Positions 2,667-64,000 of a stretch of DNA of 64,000 bases are shown here, piece by piece. Positions within the stretch are counted from its first letter, which is position 1; every line of letters begins with the position of its first letter. Under the pieces are notes generated by a model. That model saw only the letters and a program-made list of their open reading frames with translations, was not told where the DNA came from and did not search any database. Both the position numbers and the translations under genes were made by a program. This DNA is from Dehalococcoidia bacterium (GTDB lineage: Bacteria > Chloroflexota > Dehalococcoidia > Lucifugimonadales > UBA3495), in the NCBI GenBank assembly GCA_965203195.1, contig OZ241860.1:1986334-2050333 (forward strand), given 5' to 3'.

Positions 2667-5528
2667 TTACTCAGATGGCAACCGGGGCGGTTTCGTACCG
2701 TGAATTGACGGTTCCGCGGCCAGCAGGGCCCGCCAGCGGGCCGCCGCGGCGCCGGCGGCATCGTCCAGGCCCAGCAGATCCCCAAGCAGCCGCTCGTCCA
2801 GGGCAATGCGGGCCGGGTCGACGGCGCAGTGGTGGCCGGGTTGGAACCGGCGCGGGCGAAAATCGCGGTAGATGGCTTGCGCCGCATCCAGCTGCCAGGC
2901 CGCCAGCTGCCGCGCATCCAGCGTCGCCATACTTTCCAGCATCCCCTTGTTGCCTATGCCCCGGCCCTGCTGCGCCCGGTTGGAGTGGTTGGCGTGAAGC
3001 AGCATCCCCAGCGTGGAGTTGCACCACAGCGCCAGCGCGATTTCCCGCGCGTGCCTGACCGATGGGTCATCGTCCCGAACCTGCATTGTGTACCAGGAAT
3101 TGACGCCCAACACGCGAAAATCGGTCATTGCCGCCATTATCCGCTGGGAGTTGTATCTGACATTGCGGGTCAGGTGCAGCGTACCCGCCCGTTCCCAAAG
3201 GGGCCGGTGGTCGCGGCCCGGCCGGGGCAGCAGCCAGGCGTTGGGGGCGGCGGTTATGCCTTGATGCGCCGCCGCCGAATGCCGCCAGAGTGCGGGGTAC
3301 TGCGCCGGTTCGTTCCGTCCGTGATGGGAATCAAAGACGCCGTTGGGTCCGTGTATCGCCCGGTCCTCCGGCCCGACCGCGCAGACCCGGCCCAGAGGGG
3401 CGACGGGAATTGTCCCCGCGATTCGGCTGCCGTCGGCGGTCCAGATTTCGCCCCGTTCGATGGCCGCCGCAAACTGCGCGGTCAGCGCGTGTTGCCAGCG
3501 GGCGGCGGCCCAGGGCGGGGCGCCTACCGGGCCGTCCACGATTTCGCCCCACTGTTCGCCGCCGATGAACAAGGGCGTACCGCCAACCGGAGGCCCGTCG
3601 GAACGCAGTGACGGGGCCGCCGCCGCAGTGTGCACCGCGCTAACCACCGCCAGGGCGTCGGTATCCCGGCGCAGGCCGCGCCACAGGTTGACGAACCGGC
3701 CCCGGCCCGACGGGGTTTCGTCATTGCGCAACTTGCGGGCCACCAGCAGGATTTCCGCAATGCCGGTGTCGTAGGACATAGAACGCAAGTGGCTGTCCTG
3801 GGAGGACACGACGAACTCAATGTCATAGCGCTCGGCAAGCATCCGGCGAATGCCGCGCCACGATTGGCCCGACAAGGCGGTTACCGGCAGCACCAGGGCG
3901 ATGCGCCCACCCGGTTTGACCATCCGGTCGGCAAGCACAGTGAACGATGAACCATGCCCGGCAATTTTGTTAGCCGGCGTGCCACGCTGCAAGTTGGTTA
4001 TATGGGCAATCATATGTTCCAACTTCTCTGTATCCTCTTTTGGCAGCGAAAACACGCTTGCCAACGCGACTTCGTCCTTGCCGCCATCATTCCCGCTCCG
4101 CGTATATGGGGGATTGCTGATGACCAGGTCGACATTAGGTCGCTGGACAACGCTTCCCGCGCCGCTGGTAGCTCCAATCTGTTCCCGTGTGGCTGAAAAG
4201 GACGATTGCGCTTCGGGAGCTTTCAGCCAGTCTAAGGAGCCGAAATGAGCGCCGCCGGACATTTCATCAATGCCGTACATCAGGGTATGCAGCTGCATCC
4301 GTTCAAAGCGCACTGACGGGGACATTGCGGCCAGGGTGGCCGCGGTGAGGTGGATCGCCGCCGGCACGACGTCGGTTCCGATGATGATGCGTTCTACCAG
4401 GGCCTGATGCAGCGCCGGGTCGGTGGCGCCGCCGCCGCTGGCGGAGCAGTTTTGGAGTATCCGGCGATATGCCGCCATCAGCAGGGTTCCGGTGCCGCAG
4501 GCCGGGTCGACCAGGCGGAATTGGGACAGGGCGTCAACTTGATTCCAGGCCAGGCCGGGCCAGCGTTCCGGGGCCAGGGCCAGGCCGGCCAGCAGGGTTG
4601 AGGAAGGGATGCTGGTATAGTAGGCGGCCAGCAGTTTGCGCTCGGCAATCAGCCGGTTGAAAATGCGCCCGGCGAGGTCATGCCGGCCCAGGGCGCGCAT
4701 TGCCAGCAGGTCGGCGGCGGTCTGGGCGCAGGCGGCGAGCACGGCGTCGGCTTCAAGGTCGGAAAGTTCCGCCACCACCTGTTTCGCCATATGAAATATG
4801 GGGTAGTAGTCAACGGACAGGATGGCTTCCCACATTTGCAGCAGCCGGATGCGGGAAAATATGCCGCCGCGCCGGGCCGCGCTGACGGGCTGGTACAGGG
4901 CGTCGGCGCTGGCCAGTCGTTCCTGAAAGGCCATGGCGTTGATGATGACCAGGGCGGCCATATTGGCGGATTCGGCGCTGGCGTCGGCGCCGAAAACCCG
5001 GGCCACCCGCGTCAGGGTTCCCGGCGACTGGCCGAGGCGGGAACCGGCCCGGCGGGCGCCCTCGTCGAGCAGGGCCACGGCGGCCTCCAGATTGCCGGCG
5101 GGCGGAGTGGCGCGCGCCACGGCCGCGCCGAGTTCGGCCACGTCGCCGGCCAATTTGGGGCCGGCCGTGCCGTCGGCGCGCCATTCCTGCCACTGCAAGG
5201 CAGCGGCGGCCAACCTGGCGTGGAGATGCTGCTGGGGCGTGGCGCGGACGCTTTCGGGTACGACTACGGCAAAGGCGGTCTGTACGCTGCGCCCGTCGAT
5301 TTCCATACCCAGCCGGGAGAGGGCGTCGGCGGCCACTGTAGGCGCCGGGGCAATTTCAACCTCCAGGATGGCCGGCCCGCCGGGCCGGCGTGCCAGAATG
5401 TCGGGGCGCCGGCCGGCGTGGAGGGTTTCGGCGACGGCGTCCAGCCCGACCCGTTCCCGGAGCAGCCGGGCCAGCGCGTCGTTGATGACGCTTTCGTGGC
5501 TGCGGTCGTGGTCGGATGCTACAATCAT
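2667..5528 (-). CDS. large (953 aa) gamma-class N6-adenine DNA methyltransferase with extra N- and C-terminal domains; possible single-chain type IIG/IIL-like enzyme
   Basis: Motif I LVDPACGTGTLLMAA lies upstream of motif IV VISNPPYTRS. About 330 aa precede the MTase core and about 400 aa follow it. The N-terminus has RRPDILARRPGGPAILEVEI. Start moved to ATG 5528 so the gene does not overlap the divergent gene at 5620. Confidence 0.75.
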   Translation of the reverse strand: MIVASDHDRSHESVINDALARLLRERVGLDAVAETLHAGRRPDILARRPGGPAILEVEIAPAPTVAADALSRLGMEIDGRSVQTAFAVVVPESVRATPQQHLHARLAAAALQWQEWRADGTAGPKLAGDVAELGAAVARATPPAGNLEAAVALLDEGARRAGSRLGQSPGTLTRVARVFGADASAESANMAALVIINAMAFQERLASADALYQPVSAARRGGIFSRIRLLQMWEAILSVDYYPIFHMAKQVVAELSDLEADAVLAACAQTAADLLAMRALGRHDLAGRIFNRLIAERKLLAAYYTSIPSSTLLAGLALAPERWPGLAWNQVDALSQFRLVDPACGTGTLLMAAYRRILQNCSASGGGATDPALHQALVERIIIGTDVVPAAIHLTAATLAAMSPSVRFERMQLHTLMYGIDEMSGGAHFGSLDWLKAPEAQSSFSATREQIGATSGAGSVVQRPNVDLVISNPPYTRSGNDGGKDEVALASVFSLPKEDTEKLEHMIAHITNLQRGTPANKIAGHGSSFTVLADRMVKPGGRIALVLPVTALSGQSWRGIRRMLAERYDIEFVVSSQDSHLRSMSYDTGIAEILLVARKLRNDETPSGRGRFVNLWRGLRRDTDALAVVSAVHTAAAAPSLRSDGPPVGGTPLFIGGEQWGEIVDGPVGAPPWAAARWQHALTAQFAAAIERGEIWTADGSRIAGTIPVAPLGRVCAVGPEDRAIHGPNGVFDSHHGRNEPAQYPALWRHSAAAHQGITAAPNAWLLPRPGRDHRPLWERAGTLHLTRNVRYNSQRIMAAMTDFRVLGVNSWYTMQVRDDDPSVRHAREIALALWCNSTLGMLLHANHSNRAQQGRGIGNKGMLESMATLDARQLAAWQLDAAQAIYRDFRPRRFQPGHHCAVDPARIALDERLLGDLLGLDDAAGAAAARWRALLAAEPSIHGTKPPRLPSE

Positions 5529-59867: not shown

Positions 59868-60143
59868 AGTCAGACCCTCTCCTCTCCATTCAATTGCTTG
59901 CTCAACAGGTATCCCCGGGAGGCGTCCCCAGGATGTGTTCCCCAGATATGTCCACAGGAATGTTCGCGCGGCGCGCTGCGGCCCGGAGCGAAGCTGCGCC
60001 CGGCAGCCCTGGTGTGGCCGGACTGCCGGAGTTCCCATTGTGACAACCCGTTTAGTTTGACATGAATCGCGCCACGCCATTGCCGCCGGCGCAAATGCCA
60101 ATGCCGGCGCCGGCGTCAGGCTATCGGCGTCAGGCTATCGGCT

Positions 60144-61433
60144 TCAGGGTATGATGGAGCTGATGGCAATGGTTTCGTCCCGCCGGGGGCCGGTGGAGAT
60201 GATTTGCGCCTGGCAACCCACCAGTTCCTCAATGCGGCTGACATAGTCGCGGGCGTTGGCCGGCAGCCGCCCGTAGTCGGTGACGCTGGCGGTCGGTTCC
60301 GTCCAGCCGGGCATCTTTTCGTAAATCGGTTCGCAGCGTTCCAGCAGGGCGGTGTCGGCGGGAAAGCGATCGGTTTCGGCGCCGTCCTCGTCCCGGTAGC
60401 CCACGCCGATTTTGACCTCCGGCATACCGTCCAGTATGTCCAGCCGGGTCAGCACCATTCCGGTAAAGCCGTTGATGCGCTGGCTGTAGCGGGCGGCCAC
60501 GGCGTCAAACCAGCCCACCCGGCGCGGACGCCCGGTGGTGGTGCCGTACTCGTGAGCTTTCTCCCGCAGCTCCTCGGCGGCGGCGCCATGCATTTCCGTA
60601 GGCATCGGCCCGCCGCCCACGCGGGTGGAGTACGCCTTGAACACTCCCACCACGCCGGCGATGTCCTGCGGACGAATGCCCAGCCCGGTAATCGCGCCGC
60701 CAATGGACGGCGAGGACGAAGTCACATAGGGATAAGAGCCGTGGTCAATATCCAGCAGCGTGCCTTGCGCGCCTTCCAGCAGCGCGCTTTTGCCCTGCTC
60801 CAGCAGATCCTGCACCATCTGCTCGGTGGGGCAAACCCTGGACTCCAGCCGTTTCGCCCAGGTTTGGCACTGCGCCAGCACGGCGTCGGCGTCCAGGGGC
60901 TTGCCATCATACACGCCGGTGATGACCCGGTTTTTCATCGCCACGGCGTCGCGTATGCGGTCGGGCAGCTGCCGGGCATCCAGCAGGTCGCCGATGCGGA
61001 TGCCGTCGCGGGCGGCCTTGTCCACATAGGCGGGGCCAATGCCCTGCCCGGTGGTGCCGATGGCGGAACGGCCGCGCGCCTGCTCCTGCAACCCGTCCAG
61101 CAGTATGTGGTAGGGCATAATGATGTGGGCGCGGTCGCTGACGAACAGCCGGTCGGTGGCGATGCCCTGTTGGTGCAGGCCGTCGATTTCGCCGAGCAGC
61201 ACATCGGGATTGACCACCACGCCGTTGCCGATGACGCCGGTGACGCCGGGCCAGCAGATGCCGGATGGCACCAGGTGCAGCTGGAACTCGCCCCGCTCGT
61301 TGACCACCGTATGGCCGGCGTTGTTGCCGCCGGCGTAGCGCACGACGCAATCGGACCGGCCGGCCAAATAGTCAATGACCTTGCCCTTGCCCTCGTCGCC
61401 CCATTGCCCCCCGATTACGGCGTAAGCCGGCAT
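60144..61433 (-). CDS. purA: adenylosuccinate synthase
   Basis: MPAYAVIGGQWGDEGKGKVIDYL...GTTGQGIGPAY... Confidence 0.95.
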   Translation of the reverse strand: MPAYAVIGGQWGDEGKGKVIDYLAGRSDCVVRYAGGNNAGHTVVNERGEFQLHLVPSGICWPGVTGVIGNGVVVNPDVLLGEIDGLHQQGIATDRLFVSDRAHIIMPYHILLDGLQEQARGRSAIGTTGQGIGPAYVDKAARDGIRIGDLLDARQLPDRIRDAVAMKNRVITGVYDGKPLDADAVLAQCQTWAKRLESRVCPTEQMVQDLLEQGKSALLEGAQGTLLDIDHGSYPYVTSSSPSIGGAITGLGIRPQDIAGVVGVFKAYSTRVGGGPMPTEMHGAAAEELREKAHEYGTTTGRPRRVGWFDAVAARYSQRINGFTGMVLTRLDILDGMPEVKIGVGYRDEDGAETDRFPADTALLERCEPIYEKMPGWTEPTASVTDYGRLPANARDYVSRIEELVGCQAQIISTGPRRDETIAISSIIP

Positions 61434-61700
61434 TGTGCTCTGCTCCTGGATTTTGCTGAAACTAGCCGGATGTTGCCACCAGCCCGAAACGCCGCCCGGT
61501 CTCCGGCGTGGGCCAAAACTGCCCGGCAGGGCAGGGCATCCGCGCCGCGCGCCCCCGGGCAACGGGACGGCTGCCGCAGGGATTATAGCAGAAACCGCCC
61601 CCGGGCAACAGGGCAAACCGCCGCCGCAACCGGGGCAATCACCGGGAACCGGATGCCGGAACCGGATGCCGGATGAATAAGCGCCCGCCCGCGCCGATCC

Positions 61701-61835
61701 TCAATCCGGTGCCGCGCCCGGACCGGAAAGGCGGCCCCATTCAACCCCCCGCCGGCGCAGCCGTTCCGCAATGACCCGCTGCGCCGCCGGCGAGTCGTCC
61801 ATCCCAATGAAGCGGCGCCCCAGCCGGGCAAAGTA
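61701..61835 (-). pseudogene. 3'-terminal remnant of a beta-class DNA methyltransferase gene
   Basis: Translates as ...ARLGRRFIGMDDSPAAQRVIAERLRRRGVEW... 61738-61829 is about 90% identical to 62559-62650, the 3' end of the intact methylase gene. Confidence 0.7.
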
Positions 61836-62531
61836 CTACGGGTTGTTGGCAGCAATATCCGTGAGGATAGGTTGCAGGGCATTAACGCTGGCTACATAGC
61901 TACGCGGGTTTTGCATACGAACCAGCGCCTGCAATTGCGACAACCGCGCCGCGTTGTAATACGGGCCATCAACCAGGACGAAAAGGGCGACATCATTGTT
62001 GATGCGTTGCAAAAAATTTCGCAGCAGCGCCTGAATTTCGTTGAACTGATTGTCCTGATTTCCGCCGCTCTCCCGCGTGTATTTTTGAGCAGCATAGCAG
62101 GTCACTCCACCGGTCCGCCACTGAAAATCAATGGACTTGGACGGACGCTGTGCGCCAGCCAACTGCGCCCCGGTAACTATTTGGCCGTCCCTGTTGACAT
62201 AGCAAGCATTTTGGCCGCTGGATGGCAACTTGCGAAATTCCGCAACGAACGCCAATTTCTCAACATAATCGGCGGCCGCTTTCTCGTGTACGTTTTGACG
62301 GCGCGCCTCTCGCGCCAGAACGGCTGCCAACGGGCCGTTGGGGTTGGCATCTAGATCGCGCCAGAAATCGGCTTCCGGGATGTCAAATTGACCGGCGAAA
62401 TGCAGGATCCGCGTCCGCAATCGTGCGGAGCGTTGGGCAATTTCATCAGCCATCTCAGCCCGATTAGCGAGATTCTGCTGATGCTCTATCGCTTCAAAAT
62501 CCAGTGGTTGCGGTTGCTGTGGTTCTATCAT
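61836..62531 (-). CDS. putative type II restriction endonuclease (R subunit of pair 2)
   Basis: 231 aa with SKSIDFQW...CYAAQKYTRESGGNQDNQFNE (D...QxK-like). The gene is visibly AT-richer. Its ATG lies 13 nt after the methylase stop. Confidence 0.55.
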   Translation of the reverse strand: MIEPQQPQPLDFEAIEHQQNLANRAEMADEIAQRSARLRTRILHFAGQFDIPEADFWRDLDANPNGPLAAVLAREARRQNVHEKAAADYVEKLAFVAEFRKLPSSGQNACYVNRDGQIVTGAQLAGAQRPSKSIDFQWRTGGVTCYAAQKYTRESGGNQDNQFNEIQALLRNFLQRINNDVALFVLVDGPYYNAARLSQLQALVRMQNPRSYVASVNALQPILTDIAANNP

Positions 62532-62543
62532 ATCAATCCTCCA

Positions 62544-63542
62544 TTAAACTAGTTCCTGCCATTCAATCCCCCGTCCCCGCAGCCGTTCCGCAATGACCCG
62601 CTGCGCCGCCGGCGAGTCGTCCATTCCAACGAAGCGGCGCCCCAGCCGGGCGGCGGTCAGCAGCGTGCCCCCGCCCCCGGCGTAGCAGTCCAGCACCGTA
62701 TCGCCGGGGTTGGACGAGGCGCGGATGATGCGCTCCAGCATACGGGCGTTTTTCTGCGTGGGATACTGCGGGCGCTGCGGGTCTTTGTAGAGCCACACAT
62801 CCTGGGGCAGCTTGCCGGCGGCGGCGCTGGCGTAGCGAATCTGGCGCGGGTTGCCGGCGCCGCTCCATTCAATCAGGCCGGCGGCGTCCAGTTCGTCCAA
62901 CCTGGACGGAGGATAGCGCCAGTGGCGGCCCGGCGGGGGCGGCATTCCCCGCCAGGGCTGCCCCGTGGCGCCCTGACGCGTCACGCCGGGCGCGTGCAGC
63001 GGCGTGGTCGTATAGCGCCGGCCGGCGGCGTCCGCGCGGGGGTACAGGCGGGCGATTTCGGCCTCCGACAGCGGTTCCGGCTGGGGATGCCAGGTAATGC
63101 GCCGGGGCGACACGGAGTAAAAGAGGACGGTATCCTTGATGTTGCCATAGGAATGGCGGGCGAAGTTCTTGGGGTTGCACTTGATGCGGGTGATGCTGTT
63201 GCGGAAATTCTCCGGCCCGAAAACGCCATCTAGCAGCAGGCGGACATAATGCTCCATTTTGACATCAATGTGGACATAGACGGAGCCGGCGGGGGCCATC
63301 AGGCCGCGGATGGCGTCCAGCCGTTCCCGCAGGGCGTCCAGGTAGGCGTCGCCGCGCATCCGGTCGGAGTAGGCCGGCCGCCCGGAAGCGCTGACGCTGC
63401 TGGCGCGCCCGTCGTCAATCAGAAAGTCGTTGTTGGTGGCAAAGGGCGGGTCGATATAAACCAGGTCCACGGCAATGCCCGTATCCGCCAGGCGGCGCAG
63501 GCCGTCCCGGTTGTCGCCCGCGTAGAAAAGATGCGGCGTCAT
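62544..63542 (-). CDS. beta-class N4/N6 DNA methyltransferase (M subunit of pair 2)
   Basis: Motif IV LVYIDPPFATNNDF, and motif I VLDCYAGGGGTLLTAARLGRRFVGMD. ATG 63587 is an alternative start. Confidence 0.85.
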   Translation of the reverse strand: MTPHLFYAGDNRDGLRRLADTGIAVDLVYIDPPFATNNDFLIDDGRASSVSASGRPAYSDRMRGDAYLDALRERLDAIRGLMAPAGSVYVHIDVKMEHYVRLLLDGVFGPENFRNSITRIKCNPKNFARHSYGNIKDTVLFYSVSPRRITWHPQPEPLSEAEIARLYPRADAAGRRYTTTPLHAPGVTRQGATGQPWRGMPPPPGRHWRYPPSRLDELDAAGLIEWSGAGNPRQIRYASAAAGKLPQDVWLYKDPQRPQYPTQKNARMLERIIRASSNPGDTVLDCYAGGGGTLLTAARLGRRFVGMDDSPAAQRVIAERLRGRGIEWQELV

Positions 63543-63601
63543 CGCGTCTCTGCTCGCCCCGGCGTCTGTGATAACTCCAGCGTCCATAATAGCCCAGGTG
63601 T

Positions 63602-64000
63602 CTATAATAACCCCGCTTGCGCCAGAATCGCCCGCAGCAGGTTTGCCATCTGCGCCTCGTGGTAGGGGGCGAATTTGGCGAATTCGCGCCGGTTGCGGGC
63701 GGCTTCGGCGTCCGGGTCAAAGCGGTCGCCCATCAGGGCGTAGTCGCCCGCCAGCTCCCGGTTCCAGACCAGCAGCTCGTCCAGCGTCAGTTGCGGTTCA
63801 AACTGGAAGCCGTAGGATACCCCGTAGCGAAAGGCCATGGGGATGCGGACATAACCGCCGTCGCGCCGCAGCATCGTCCCCTCGGCCAGCAGGACGGCGT
63901 CGGGGGGAACGGTGAACTGCTCGCCGTGCAGGGTAGGAACCAGTGGTATGTCAATCCGGCCGAAGGCGGGGTCGGCGGCGCCGGCGGCGGTGAGATCCAG
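63602..64000 (-). CDS. hypothetical protein, C-terminal part (gene continues past window end)
   Basis: The open frame runs to the window edge: ...GRIDIPLVPTLHGEQFTVPPDAVLLAEGTMLRRDGGYVRIPMAFRYGVSYGFQFE... Family not recognised. Confidence 0.5.
   Translation of the reverse strand: MDLTAAGAADPAFGRIDIPLVPTLHGEQFTVPPDAVLLAEGTMLRRDGGYVRIPMAFRYGVSYGFQFEPQLTLDELLVWNRELAGDYALMGDRFDPDAEAARNRREFAKFAPYHEAQMANLLRAILAQAGLL

Follow-up and report, generated by a model that had tools for sequence, protein, structure and literature searches.

Orphan DNA methylases are thought to be what remains of restriction-modification (R-M) systems that have lost their restriction gene, and to guard their hosts against re-invasion by the same system, although the evidence for this is mostly statistical. 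Cross-genome statistics have presented orphan methyltransferases as degradation products of R-M systems, formed through point-mutational decay (Seshasayee, Singh & Krishna 2012, Nucleic Acids Res 40:7066, PMC3424554). R-M systems are also known to insert with long target duplication, with repeats of 46 to 423 bp, a pattern found for all R-M types and including targets inside a Type II methylase gene (Furuta, Abe & Kobayashi 2010, Nucleic Acids Res 38:2428, PMC2853133, where long target duplication is credited to Nobusato et al. 2000). Such insertions were defined in that study by repeats longer than 30 bp, an uninterrupted single-copy relative, the presence of both the restriction and the methylase gene in the insert, and a length below 20 kb without mobility genes. 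A third precedent is homology-facilitated illegitimate recombination, which has been described for the orphaned 3' ends of Rhs, contact-dependent inhibition (CDI), and type VI secretion system (T6SS) effector loci (Kirchberger et al. 2017, PMC5361080, citing de Vries & Wackernagel 2002 and Meier & Wackernagel 2003 for the mechanism). Here, we describe a related locus in a 64,000-nt stretch of the genome of an uncultured Dehalococcoidia-type bacterium (contig OZ241860.1; hereafter the window, to which all positions refer). In this locus, a putative restriction gene (R) lies between an intact methylase gene (M) and the displaced 3' end of an orphan methylase allele (M0), and alleles with and without R coexist in the species. 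We propose that R was lost and later regained by an already orphan methylase.

The genes of the locus (GATase, M, R, and purA) are all on the minus strand (Table 1), and GATase lies directly upstream of M at every conspecific and sister locus. A repeat search identified a direct repeat of 93 nt with 87 identical positions (94%) and a spacing of 822; the second-longest direct repeat within 60000-64000 is 25 nt at 80%. The perfect 46-nt core of the repeat (61757-61802 = 62579-62624) is unique within the 64 kb and was never equalled in 100 shuffles (0/100). Read on the minus strand, it translates as ARLGRRF[V/I]GMDDSPAAQRVIAERLR[G/R]RG[I/V]EW, corresponding to residues ~313-343 of the 347-residue PF01555 methylase. 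An earlier note, made from the letters of the window, had correctly recognized this repeat as the end of a beta-class methylase, but its coordinates (61738-61829 and 62559-62650) were one base off at each end and its estimate of about 90% identity was too low.

The upstream copy and the start of R are separated by 27 nt, which comprise the final four codons and the stop codon of M and then a 12-nt spacer that includes GGAGG. Six nucleotides separate the R stop codon from the downstream copy (TAG TACTTT followed by GCCCGG), which shares the reading frame of R and is extended by a further 12 codons up to a stop of its own at 61701; it is the orphan gene tail behind R that the earlier note had described. 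The insert between the two copies is 729 bp long (61830-62558), has a low guanine-plus-cytosine (GC) content, and consists almost entirely of R. The GC content of the R gene is 55%; it ranges over 52-58% in the R region against 65-73% in the flanks, in agreement with the previous remark that R is AT-richer.

Table 1. Features of the M-R locus and its surroundings, in window coordinates.
Feature	Position	Strand	Basis
GATase-like gene, 3' part, continuing past the window end	63602-64000	-	tblastn with the L002 GATase (PF00117), 80% identity
M, beta-class N6/N4 DNA methyltransferase	62544-63587	-	PF01555, PADLOC MTase_II, motifs
Upstream repeat copy (B), M codons ~313-343, within the live methylase gene	62559-62651	-	
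Left end of insert: R-linked type of M ending (final four codons, QELV), stop, 12-nt GGAGG spacer	62532-62558	-	In all R-bearing alleles; absent from L005 and L052
R, 231-residue putative Type II restriction endonuclease, PD-(D/E)XK-like fold	61836-62531	-	Predicted structure and gene context
6-nt spacer TACTTT from R stop to remnant, the only junction unmatched in other alleles	61830-61835	-	
Downstream repeat copy (A), a pseudogene fragment formed by the displaced 3' end of the M0 allele	61737-61829	-	
Remnant-specific tail GRLSGPGAAPD and stop, identical to the M0 C-terminus	61701-61736	-	P0121 and 10 other cluster members; L005/L052 nucleotide alignment
Short tandem repeat (CCGGATG heptamer / 13-mer) in the spacer between remnant and purA	61645-61675	.	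Copy number varies by strain
purA (adenylosuccinate synthetase), right flank common to R-bearing and R-less alleles	60144-61433	-	PF00709 on orthologues; tblastn 96-98%

M is a beta-class DNA methyltransferase with S-adenosylmethionine-binding and catalytic motifs. It matches Pfam PF01555 at 1.9e-35 and PADLOC MTase_II PDLC03354 at 1.4e-121, its translation contains IDPPF and YAGGGGT in the beta-class order, and its relatives in the PDB include M.MboIIA, M.RsrI, and CcrM. The longest open reading frame has 347 codons, but the likely start is 15 codons later (MTPHLFYAG..., 332 residues, as called in the R-bearing alleles L001 and L050). The length of the N-terminal stretch MDAGVITDAGASRDA (63542-63587) differs between strains and its pattern resembles a repeat (P0244, P0253), which leaves the position of the M start uncertain.

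Alleles that lack R have the structure expected of an empty site. The nearest homologue of M in the protein collection is P0121 (350 residues, 97% identical, ending ..RRFVGMDDSPAAQRVIAERLRRRGVEWGRLSGPGAAPD), and the C-terminus of this M0 protein (...EWGRLSGPGAAPD and stop) is the one encoded by the window remnant. The contig that carries P0121, L005, is conspecific (~97% identical) and reads GATase-M0-purA-DoxX without R. A three-way alignment with the window shows L005 to lack exactly one 822-bp unit, which is the only indel at the site, and a second R-less allele, L052, found on a 3.8-Mb contig from another sample, has the same structure. The earlier note had proposed that R was poised for clean loss, which would leave an orphan methylase, and had suggested looking for orphan alleles in related genomes; the single-copy state, lacking exactly this unit, is found in these two conspecific alleles. 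The remnant differs from the orphan allele at 3 of 129 nt, as compared with 6 of 93 nt from the adjacent M, to which the last 36 nt of the remnant are not homologous. Because M0 is 97% identical to M and shares the C-terminus of the remnant, the remnant (61701-61829) is the 3' end of an allelic, orphan version of the same gene, that is, a displaced part of the resident gene kept downstream. Derivation from an unrelated methylase, which the earlier note had named as a possible objection, therefore does not apply.

Both states occur together in one metagenome, ERZ25070167, which contains the R-less L005 along with the R-bearing L001 and L050 and a scrambled R allele, L049; the contig names give coverages of 19.99x, 5.27x, 5.92x, and 7.09x, respectively. 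The claim that this structure is a snapshot of R-M gain or loss is thus borne out at the level of a natural population. In the methylase cluster at ≥90% identity, 15 of the 30 members were listed, and among these the M0 ending (EWGRLSG[PDE]GAAPD) was found in 11, the R-linked ending (EWQELV) in two, a scrambled fusion in one, and a fragment in one. The M0 ending is confined to the cluster of this species, and the orphan-methylase allele appears to be the commoner form. The methylase body has a synonymous divergence (dS) of 0.05-0.11 and a ratio of nonsynonymous to synonymous divergence (dN/dS) of 0.01-0.17 whether R is present or absent, including in pairs of R-less and R-bearing alleles. M0, the allelic form carried by L005 and L052 and not the window copy, is an orphan methylase orthologous to the R-linked M and under purifying selection.

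Comparison among R-bearing strains bears on the origin of the present structure. The repeat and remnant were found in four further assemblies, L001, L050, L049 (ERZ25070167), and L051 (ERZ23496207), and all five R-bearing alleles share one junction (TAG TA(C/T)TTT followed by GCCCGG) and the remnant, which points to a single origin. Recurrence of the remnant structure elsewhere was considered and rejected, as no methylase tail follows R at any of 41 other R-containing genome loci. Two deep remnant haplotypes exist, each near-identical to an R-less tail (window and L001 to L005; L050 to L052). Because these remnant haplotypes match live M0 tails, either sequence has been exchanged between remnants and M0 tails or there has been more than one loss or gain of R. 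In the same four R-bearing strains, dS was 0.019-0.044 for R (dN/dS, 0.2-0.5) and 0.064-0.088 for the M body, and the protein identities to the nearest sister, L002, were 87% for R and 85% for M. With less than half the synonymous diversity of M and a similar divergence from the sister, the R-bearing haplotype looks younger than M diversity. These small counts suggest that R-bearing alleles postdate the species' methylase diversity. Both flanks differ by 2-4% between strains in a star-like pattern with no clustering by R state, for which reason an attempt to link individual R-less alleles to R-bearing ones through flank haplotypes was uninformative. A "reciprocal mosaic" reading of the six differences between the copies, with recipient 5' and donor 3' sequence in the upstream copy and the converse in the remnant, would have proved a single crossover with a circular donor; it was also considered and dropped, since all of the variants segregate in R-less alleles and L050 combines them differently.

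Sister species indicate what may have preceded this structure. At least seven sister genomes (L002, L003/L007, L008, L009, L010, L036, and L043) have the order GATase-M-R-DLH and no remnant; in this species, purA follows M0 or the remnant where the sisters have DLH. The sister R-linked methylases end in ..(E/S)WQ(E/R)L.., like M of the window, and the left edge of the insert continues as in these genes (..GA(A/G)TGG CA(G/A) GAA CT.). With an L052-type M0 tail, the two copies match without exception as far as GAATGG, where the homology ends abruptly. Since M of the window continues in sister-like fashion past GAATGG, the left edge of the insert would be the old breakpoint that made M0, and in that case the junction 6 nt beyond R is the sole new one that has to be assumed. 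While the left side resembles the sister genes, the right junction, TACTTT followed by GCCCGG, is without counterpart elsewhere. Because the M-R pair of the sisters occupies the same GATase-linked site and no remnant follows it, the event was probably a re-acquisition after an older loss. The earlier note had proposed that R was put in beside a pre-existing methylase by recombination, and this is supported by the M0 remnant, with the refinement that R had probably been there before.

The best explanation, to which we assign a probability of about 0.68, is a strain-level presence/absence polymorphism of R beside a methylase that is a fixed, selected gene in this bacterium. R would have been lost, regained once by one-ended homologous recombination into the orphan methylase, and would be losable again through the repeats. 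The order of events that we infer would begin with a group ancestor of the form GATase-M-R-DLH, in which a rearrangement with a breakpoint just past M codon 343 would have removed R and produced M0, with a new C-terminus (..EW-GRLSGPGAAPD and stop), beside purA. DNA of a relative that had kept M-R may then have recombined in, with one end anchored by homology in the methylase gene and the other, 6 nt downstream of the R stop, linked by illegitimate joining to about codon 313 of M0. This would have placed the 3' end of M together with R ahead of the displaced M0 tail and so created the 93-bp direct repeat. The R-bearing form would subsequently have spread among strains by ordinary recombination, with loss of R occurring through the 93-bp repeat. 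Since both copies are in frame and the remnant has a stop codon, a crossover anywhere in the repeat would remove R and regenerate an intact methylase gene (M0), and because the repeats bracket R alone, the methylase would never be lost together with it. In an R-M system, losing R while keeping M is the non-lethal direction. Gain of R by a genome methylated by a 97%-identical M0 would likewise be expected, from established R-M biology, to be safe.

Several observations weigh against this explanation. The contrast in dS comes down to 3-7 synonymous differences in each pair. Every site at which the two copies of the window differ (V/I, RGRGI/RRRGV) also varies among R-less alleles, and L050 has another combination of these variants; with such segregating sites and star-like flanks, haplotypes cannot separate alleles that never had R from those that lost it. 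No donor allele (R, TACTTT, then non-methylase DNA) was found, so that the illegitimate junction cannot be dissected, and two pattern scans of Joint Genome Institute (JGI) metagenome contigs, one with the R 3' end for the donor and one for the M0-specific junction, returned no match. Furthermore, in R-bearing strains neither the upstream copy nor the M body is further from M0 than the strains are from one another. For M to show no foreign tract, the donor would have to be near-conspecific, or recombination would have to have homogenised the gene afterwards, which is plausible in a freely recombining population. Finally, the fold match of R is modest (E = 3e-3; template modelling [TM] score, 0.42).

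Alternatively, R may never have been lost. An ancestral GATase-M-R would have been rearranged such that the DNA following R was joined midway into a second, paralogous methylase upstream of purA, in which case the R-less alleles would be secondary recombinants between the repeats and M0 a chimera of two paralogues. We consider this unlikely. Vertical descent of R would fit the sister M-R at the same GATase-linked site and the correlation between M and R identities (r = 0.87 over 30 loci), the perfect 46-nt core would make deletion mechanistically easy, and the L005 tail is of the upstream-copy type at the 5' variable site (GTT) and of the remnant type at the 3' sites, as a crossover within the repeat would leave it. 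However, such a rearrangement requires a near-identical paralogue (tail ~94-100%) in the right orientation, and no paralogue of this kind was present at any locus examined. An R synonymous diversity less than half that of M in the same strains would also be unexpected if the R-bearing state were old, and it is the R-less state that is found in the majority of the listed cluster members (11 of 14 near-full-length).

Re-acquisition of a restriction gene, as we propose, also depends on what R encodes. R is treated here as the putative cognate restriction endonuclease of M, which we hold to be very probable because of its fold neighbours, its linkage to M, the co-divergence of the two genes, the decay of R, M-R fusions, and the rarity of R relative to M. 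Neither single-sequence searches (phmmer) nor a PDB profile search gave a match for R in Pfam, NCBIfam, PADLOC, or the PDB, and its 142 homologues are all unnamed; M, in comparison, has more than 5000 homologues at E<1e-60. The AlphaFold model of R, built on a 52-sequence alignment, has a predicted local distance difference test score (pLDDT) of 92.5 and a predicted TM score (pTM) of 0.84. Its best Foldseek neighbour is BstEII (9ibq_A; E = 3e-3, probability 0.99, TM score 0.42, 18% identity), and further neighbours are the PD-(D/E)XK nucleases Can2, VC1899, HamA, MGME1, EcoRI, BspD6I, McrC, and EcoO109I. Residues D135 and K150 are invariant and lie on adjacent beta-strands of the model, with the local sequence AAQK; the canonical (D/E)xK triplet is not evident in R. 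A scan of one genome per species returned 43 R loci, mostly in metagenome-assembled genomes of Dehalococcoidia and other Chloroflexota. An M homologue was immediately upstream of R in about 32 of these 43 loci, typically with an M-R gap of 14-70 nt, and the identities of M and R to the window correlate as noted above; the two genes thus co-occur and co-diverge across genomes.

Decay of R in relatives is evident at various stages. Homologues of R are frameshifted or truncated in L031, L032, L034, L035, L036, L043, and L048 (with the R match near 4001-4660 in each), L036 having kept only R residues 123-227 and L031 only residues 55-228. In L034, L035, L036, L043, and L048, a full-length methylase is still directly upstream of the decayed R; upstream of R in L031 and L032 there is no close homologue of M, and the methylase matches downstream are weak and distant. 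Two homologues carry M and R as a single open reading frame, with the methylase N-terminal and R C-terminal: P0179 (572 residues, on a 1.09-Mb contig) and P0100 (301 residues, a fragment at a contig end). These may be natural M-R fusions of the family or may have lost the M stop codon.

The base composition of R requires some caution. Across the family, R averages 8 GC points below its flanks, and the low GC of R was accordingly rejected as a sign of recent arrival. In the clade nearest the window (L002-L010), M has a host-like GC content and R does not, whereas in more distant genomes (L012-L030) both genes are low; with this difference among relatives, M and R seem to differ in residence time or constraint.

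Independently of the other alternatives, R may not be a restriction endonuclease at all but, for example, a nuclease-fold regulator or repair factor, and the polymorphism would then be one of an accessory gene. The failure of R to match any sequence in Pfam, NCBIfam, PADLOC, and the PDB, with Foldseek E-values that are all above 1e-3, would be compatible with such a role. We nevertheless think it quite unlikely, as the best structural match is a Type II enzyme, essentially all leading matches are PD-(D/E)XK nucleases, and the close tandem arrangement of R with an upstream Type II-like methylase (~32 genomes), the decay of R alongside an intact M, its patchy distribution, and the M-R fusions are all typical of restriction genes.

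Another possibility concerns the unit that moves. The 822-bp unit (93-bp tail, spacer, R, and 6 nt) may itself be a mobile module, existing as a circle or tandem array and integrating reversibly into any resident methylase of the family by a Campbell-type single crossover in the tail. One crossover between such a circle and the methylase would yield precisely the structure of the locus, flanking direct repeats included; the amplification and movement of R-M units through long flanking repeats has been proposed (PMC2853133), and the two remnant haplotypes (window/L001 and L050) match different R-less alleles (L005 and L052) while having one junction in common, as would follow if a single unit had integrated repeatedly into differing M0 backgrounds. 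Ordinary recombination in a freely recombining population explains these shared haplotypes equally well, however, and the remnant is found in this species only, with a methylase tail after R at 0 of 41 other R loci; no circle or tandem array was observed. We therefore judge a mobile module to be very doubtful. A related version, in which R travels alone, the 822-bp unit of methylase tail and R entering any resident orphan methylase of the family and leaving through the repeat, is in our view decidedly improbable. If R did travel in this way, the unit would be a minimal, recombinase-free mobile form of a restriction gene with the methylase 3' end as its portable homology arm, domesticated orphan methylases would be repeatedly re-armed, and the population would possess an on/off switch for restriction without any genome ever being exposed to unmethylated sites.

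An assembly artefact, in which reads of R-bearing and R-less strains were collapsed or joined into chimeras, can be given hardly any credence even with both alleles in one sample and the short-read scaffold of L051 having a run of Ns inside the remnant, because five assemblies, drawn from at least three data sets, have the identical junction and remnant, and the copies differ at six window positions, which collapse would not produce. The earlier note had named misassembly of the repeat as a finding that would overturn its proposal; the same structure in four other assemblies, from at least two samples, shows that the window is not misassembled in this respect.

In the scrambled allele L049 (positions 3001-4500; ENA ERZ25070167 ctg352199; P0247), M runs in frame into fragments of R. 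At the end of M, 30 nt are duplicated in tandem, several stretches are deleted internally, and part of the downstream spacer lies within R, but the 3' end of R, the TAG TATTTT junction, and the remnant are retained. This allele represents either a truly scrambled, inactive R or a low-coverage assembly problem.

Some other features of the locus were recorded. Positions 2031-4950 of L005 contain a NotI-family endonuclease gene (PF12183) and a gene for a 692-residue N6/N4 methylase, on the opposite strand and directly upstream of GATase. The same arrangement is found at the left ends of L049, L050, and L052 (past window position 64000), although the NotI-family gene has its own gene call only in L005. 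With a second endonuclease and methylase beside GATase, the locus is a small cluster of two R-M systems. No features of phase variation were seen in the form of a simple-sequence tract or invertible element in M or R. The sole short tandem repeat is in the spacer before purA (61645-61675); its copy number differs among the window, L001, L050, and L005, and indels occur there in a six-way alignment. A scan for promoters and terminators gave results no better than shuffled sequence. The remnant (stretch 61701-61838) is in the frame of R, separated from it by one TAG and two codons, and read-through would add 44 residues. A read-through fusion of R and remnant was rejected, as nothing speaks in its favour, the shared frame has a chance expectation of 1 in 3, and it is inherited from the single junction.

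The locus combines elements of the three precedents with which we began. As in long target duplication, its direct repeats (93 bp) far exceed the target duplications of transposons, a single-copy empty site is found in relatives (L005 and L052), and the insert, at 729 bp, has no mobility genes, no other family-bearing open reading frame, and a lower GC content. Unlike the described cases, the insert holds R and only the last four codons and stop of M, so the expectation of both genes within the insert fails, and the duplicated target is the 3' end of the methylase that is cognate to R itself, with the resident M remaining intact and serving as its partner. The locus is a clean, well-documented example of this known type and not a new principle.

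A displaced 3' end kept downstream is shared with the orphaned 3' ends of Rhs, CDI, and T6SS loci, and the conserved upstream part that serves there as homologous anchor, with an illegitimately joined far end, may have its equivalent here. Those loci displace toxin tips and keep old immunity genes, whereas here the incoming tail is nearly the same as the displaced one, and in place of a series of unlike orphans there is a direct repeat prone to recombination; the mechanism at the present locus would be analogous. The relationship of R to R.BstEII and other PD-(D/E)XK Type II enzymes is likewise partial. These are the best structural neighbours of the R model, with which it shares a beta-strand pair bearing the invariant D135 and K150, but at 18% identity and a TM score of 0.42 there is no sequence-level relationship, and the (D/E)xK triplet is not evident. 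Should the assignment hold, about 140 unannotated proteins would join the candidate Type II endonucleases.

Finally, like the orphan methylases described as degradation products of R-M systems, the present family includes relatives with M-R and with M only, decayed R intermediates, and a conserved orphan methylase. It differs in that both states are found in one population, separated by a precise, repeat-bounded indel, and in that the orphan probably preceded the present R-bearing allele. The leftover end of the M0 gene implies that the present R-bearing form was built on a methylase that was already an orphan; the re-arming of an orphan suggests that the process also runs opposite to the usually assumed direction. 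Loss of R would be clean and non-lethal, since the repeats bracket only R. With both states of one locus in one natural population and base-pair-exact boundaries between them, this locus offers a concrete case for measuring how often restriction is gained and lost, and with what effect on fitness, in a Chloroflexota lineage that is uncultured and probably host-associated.

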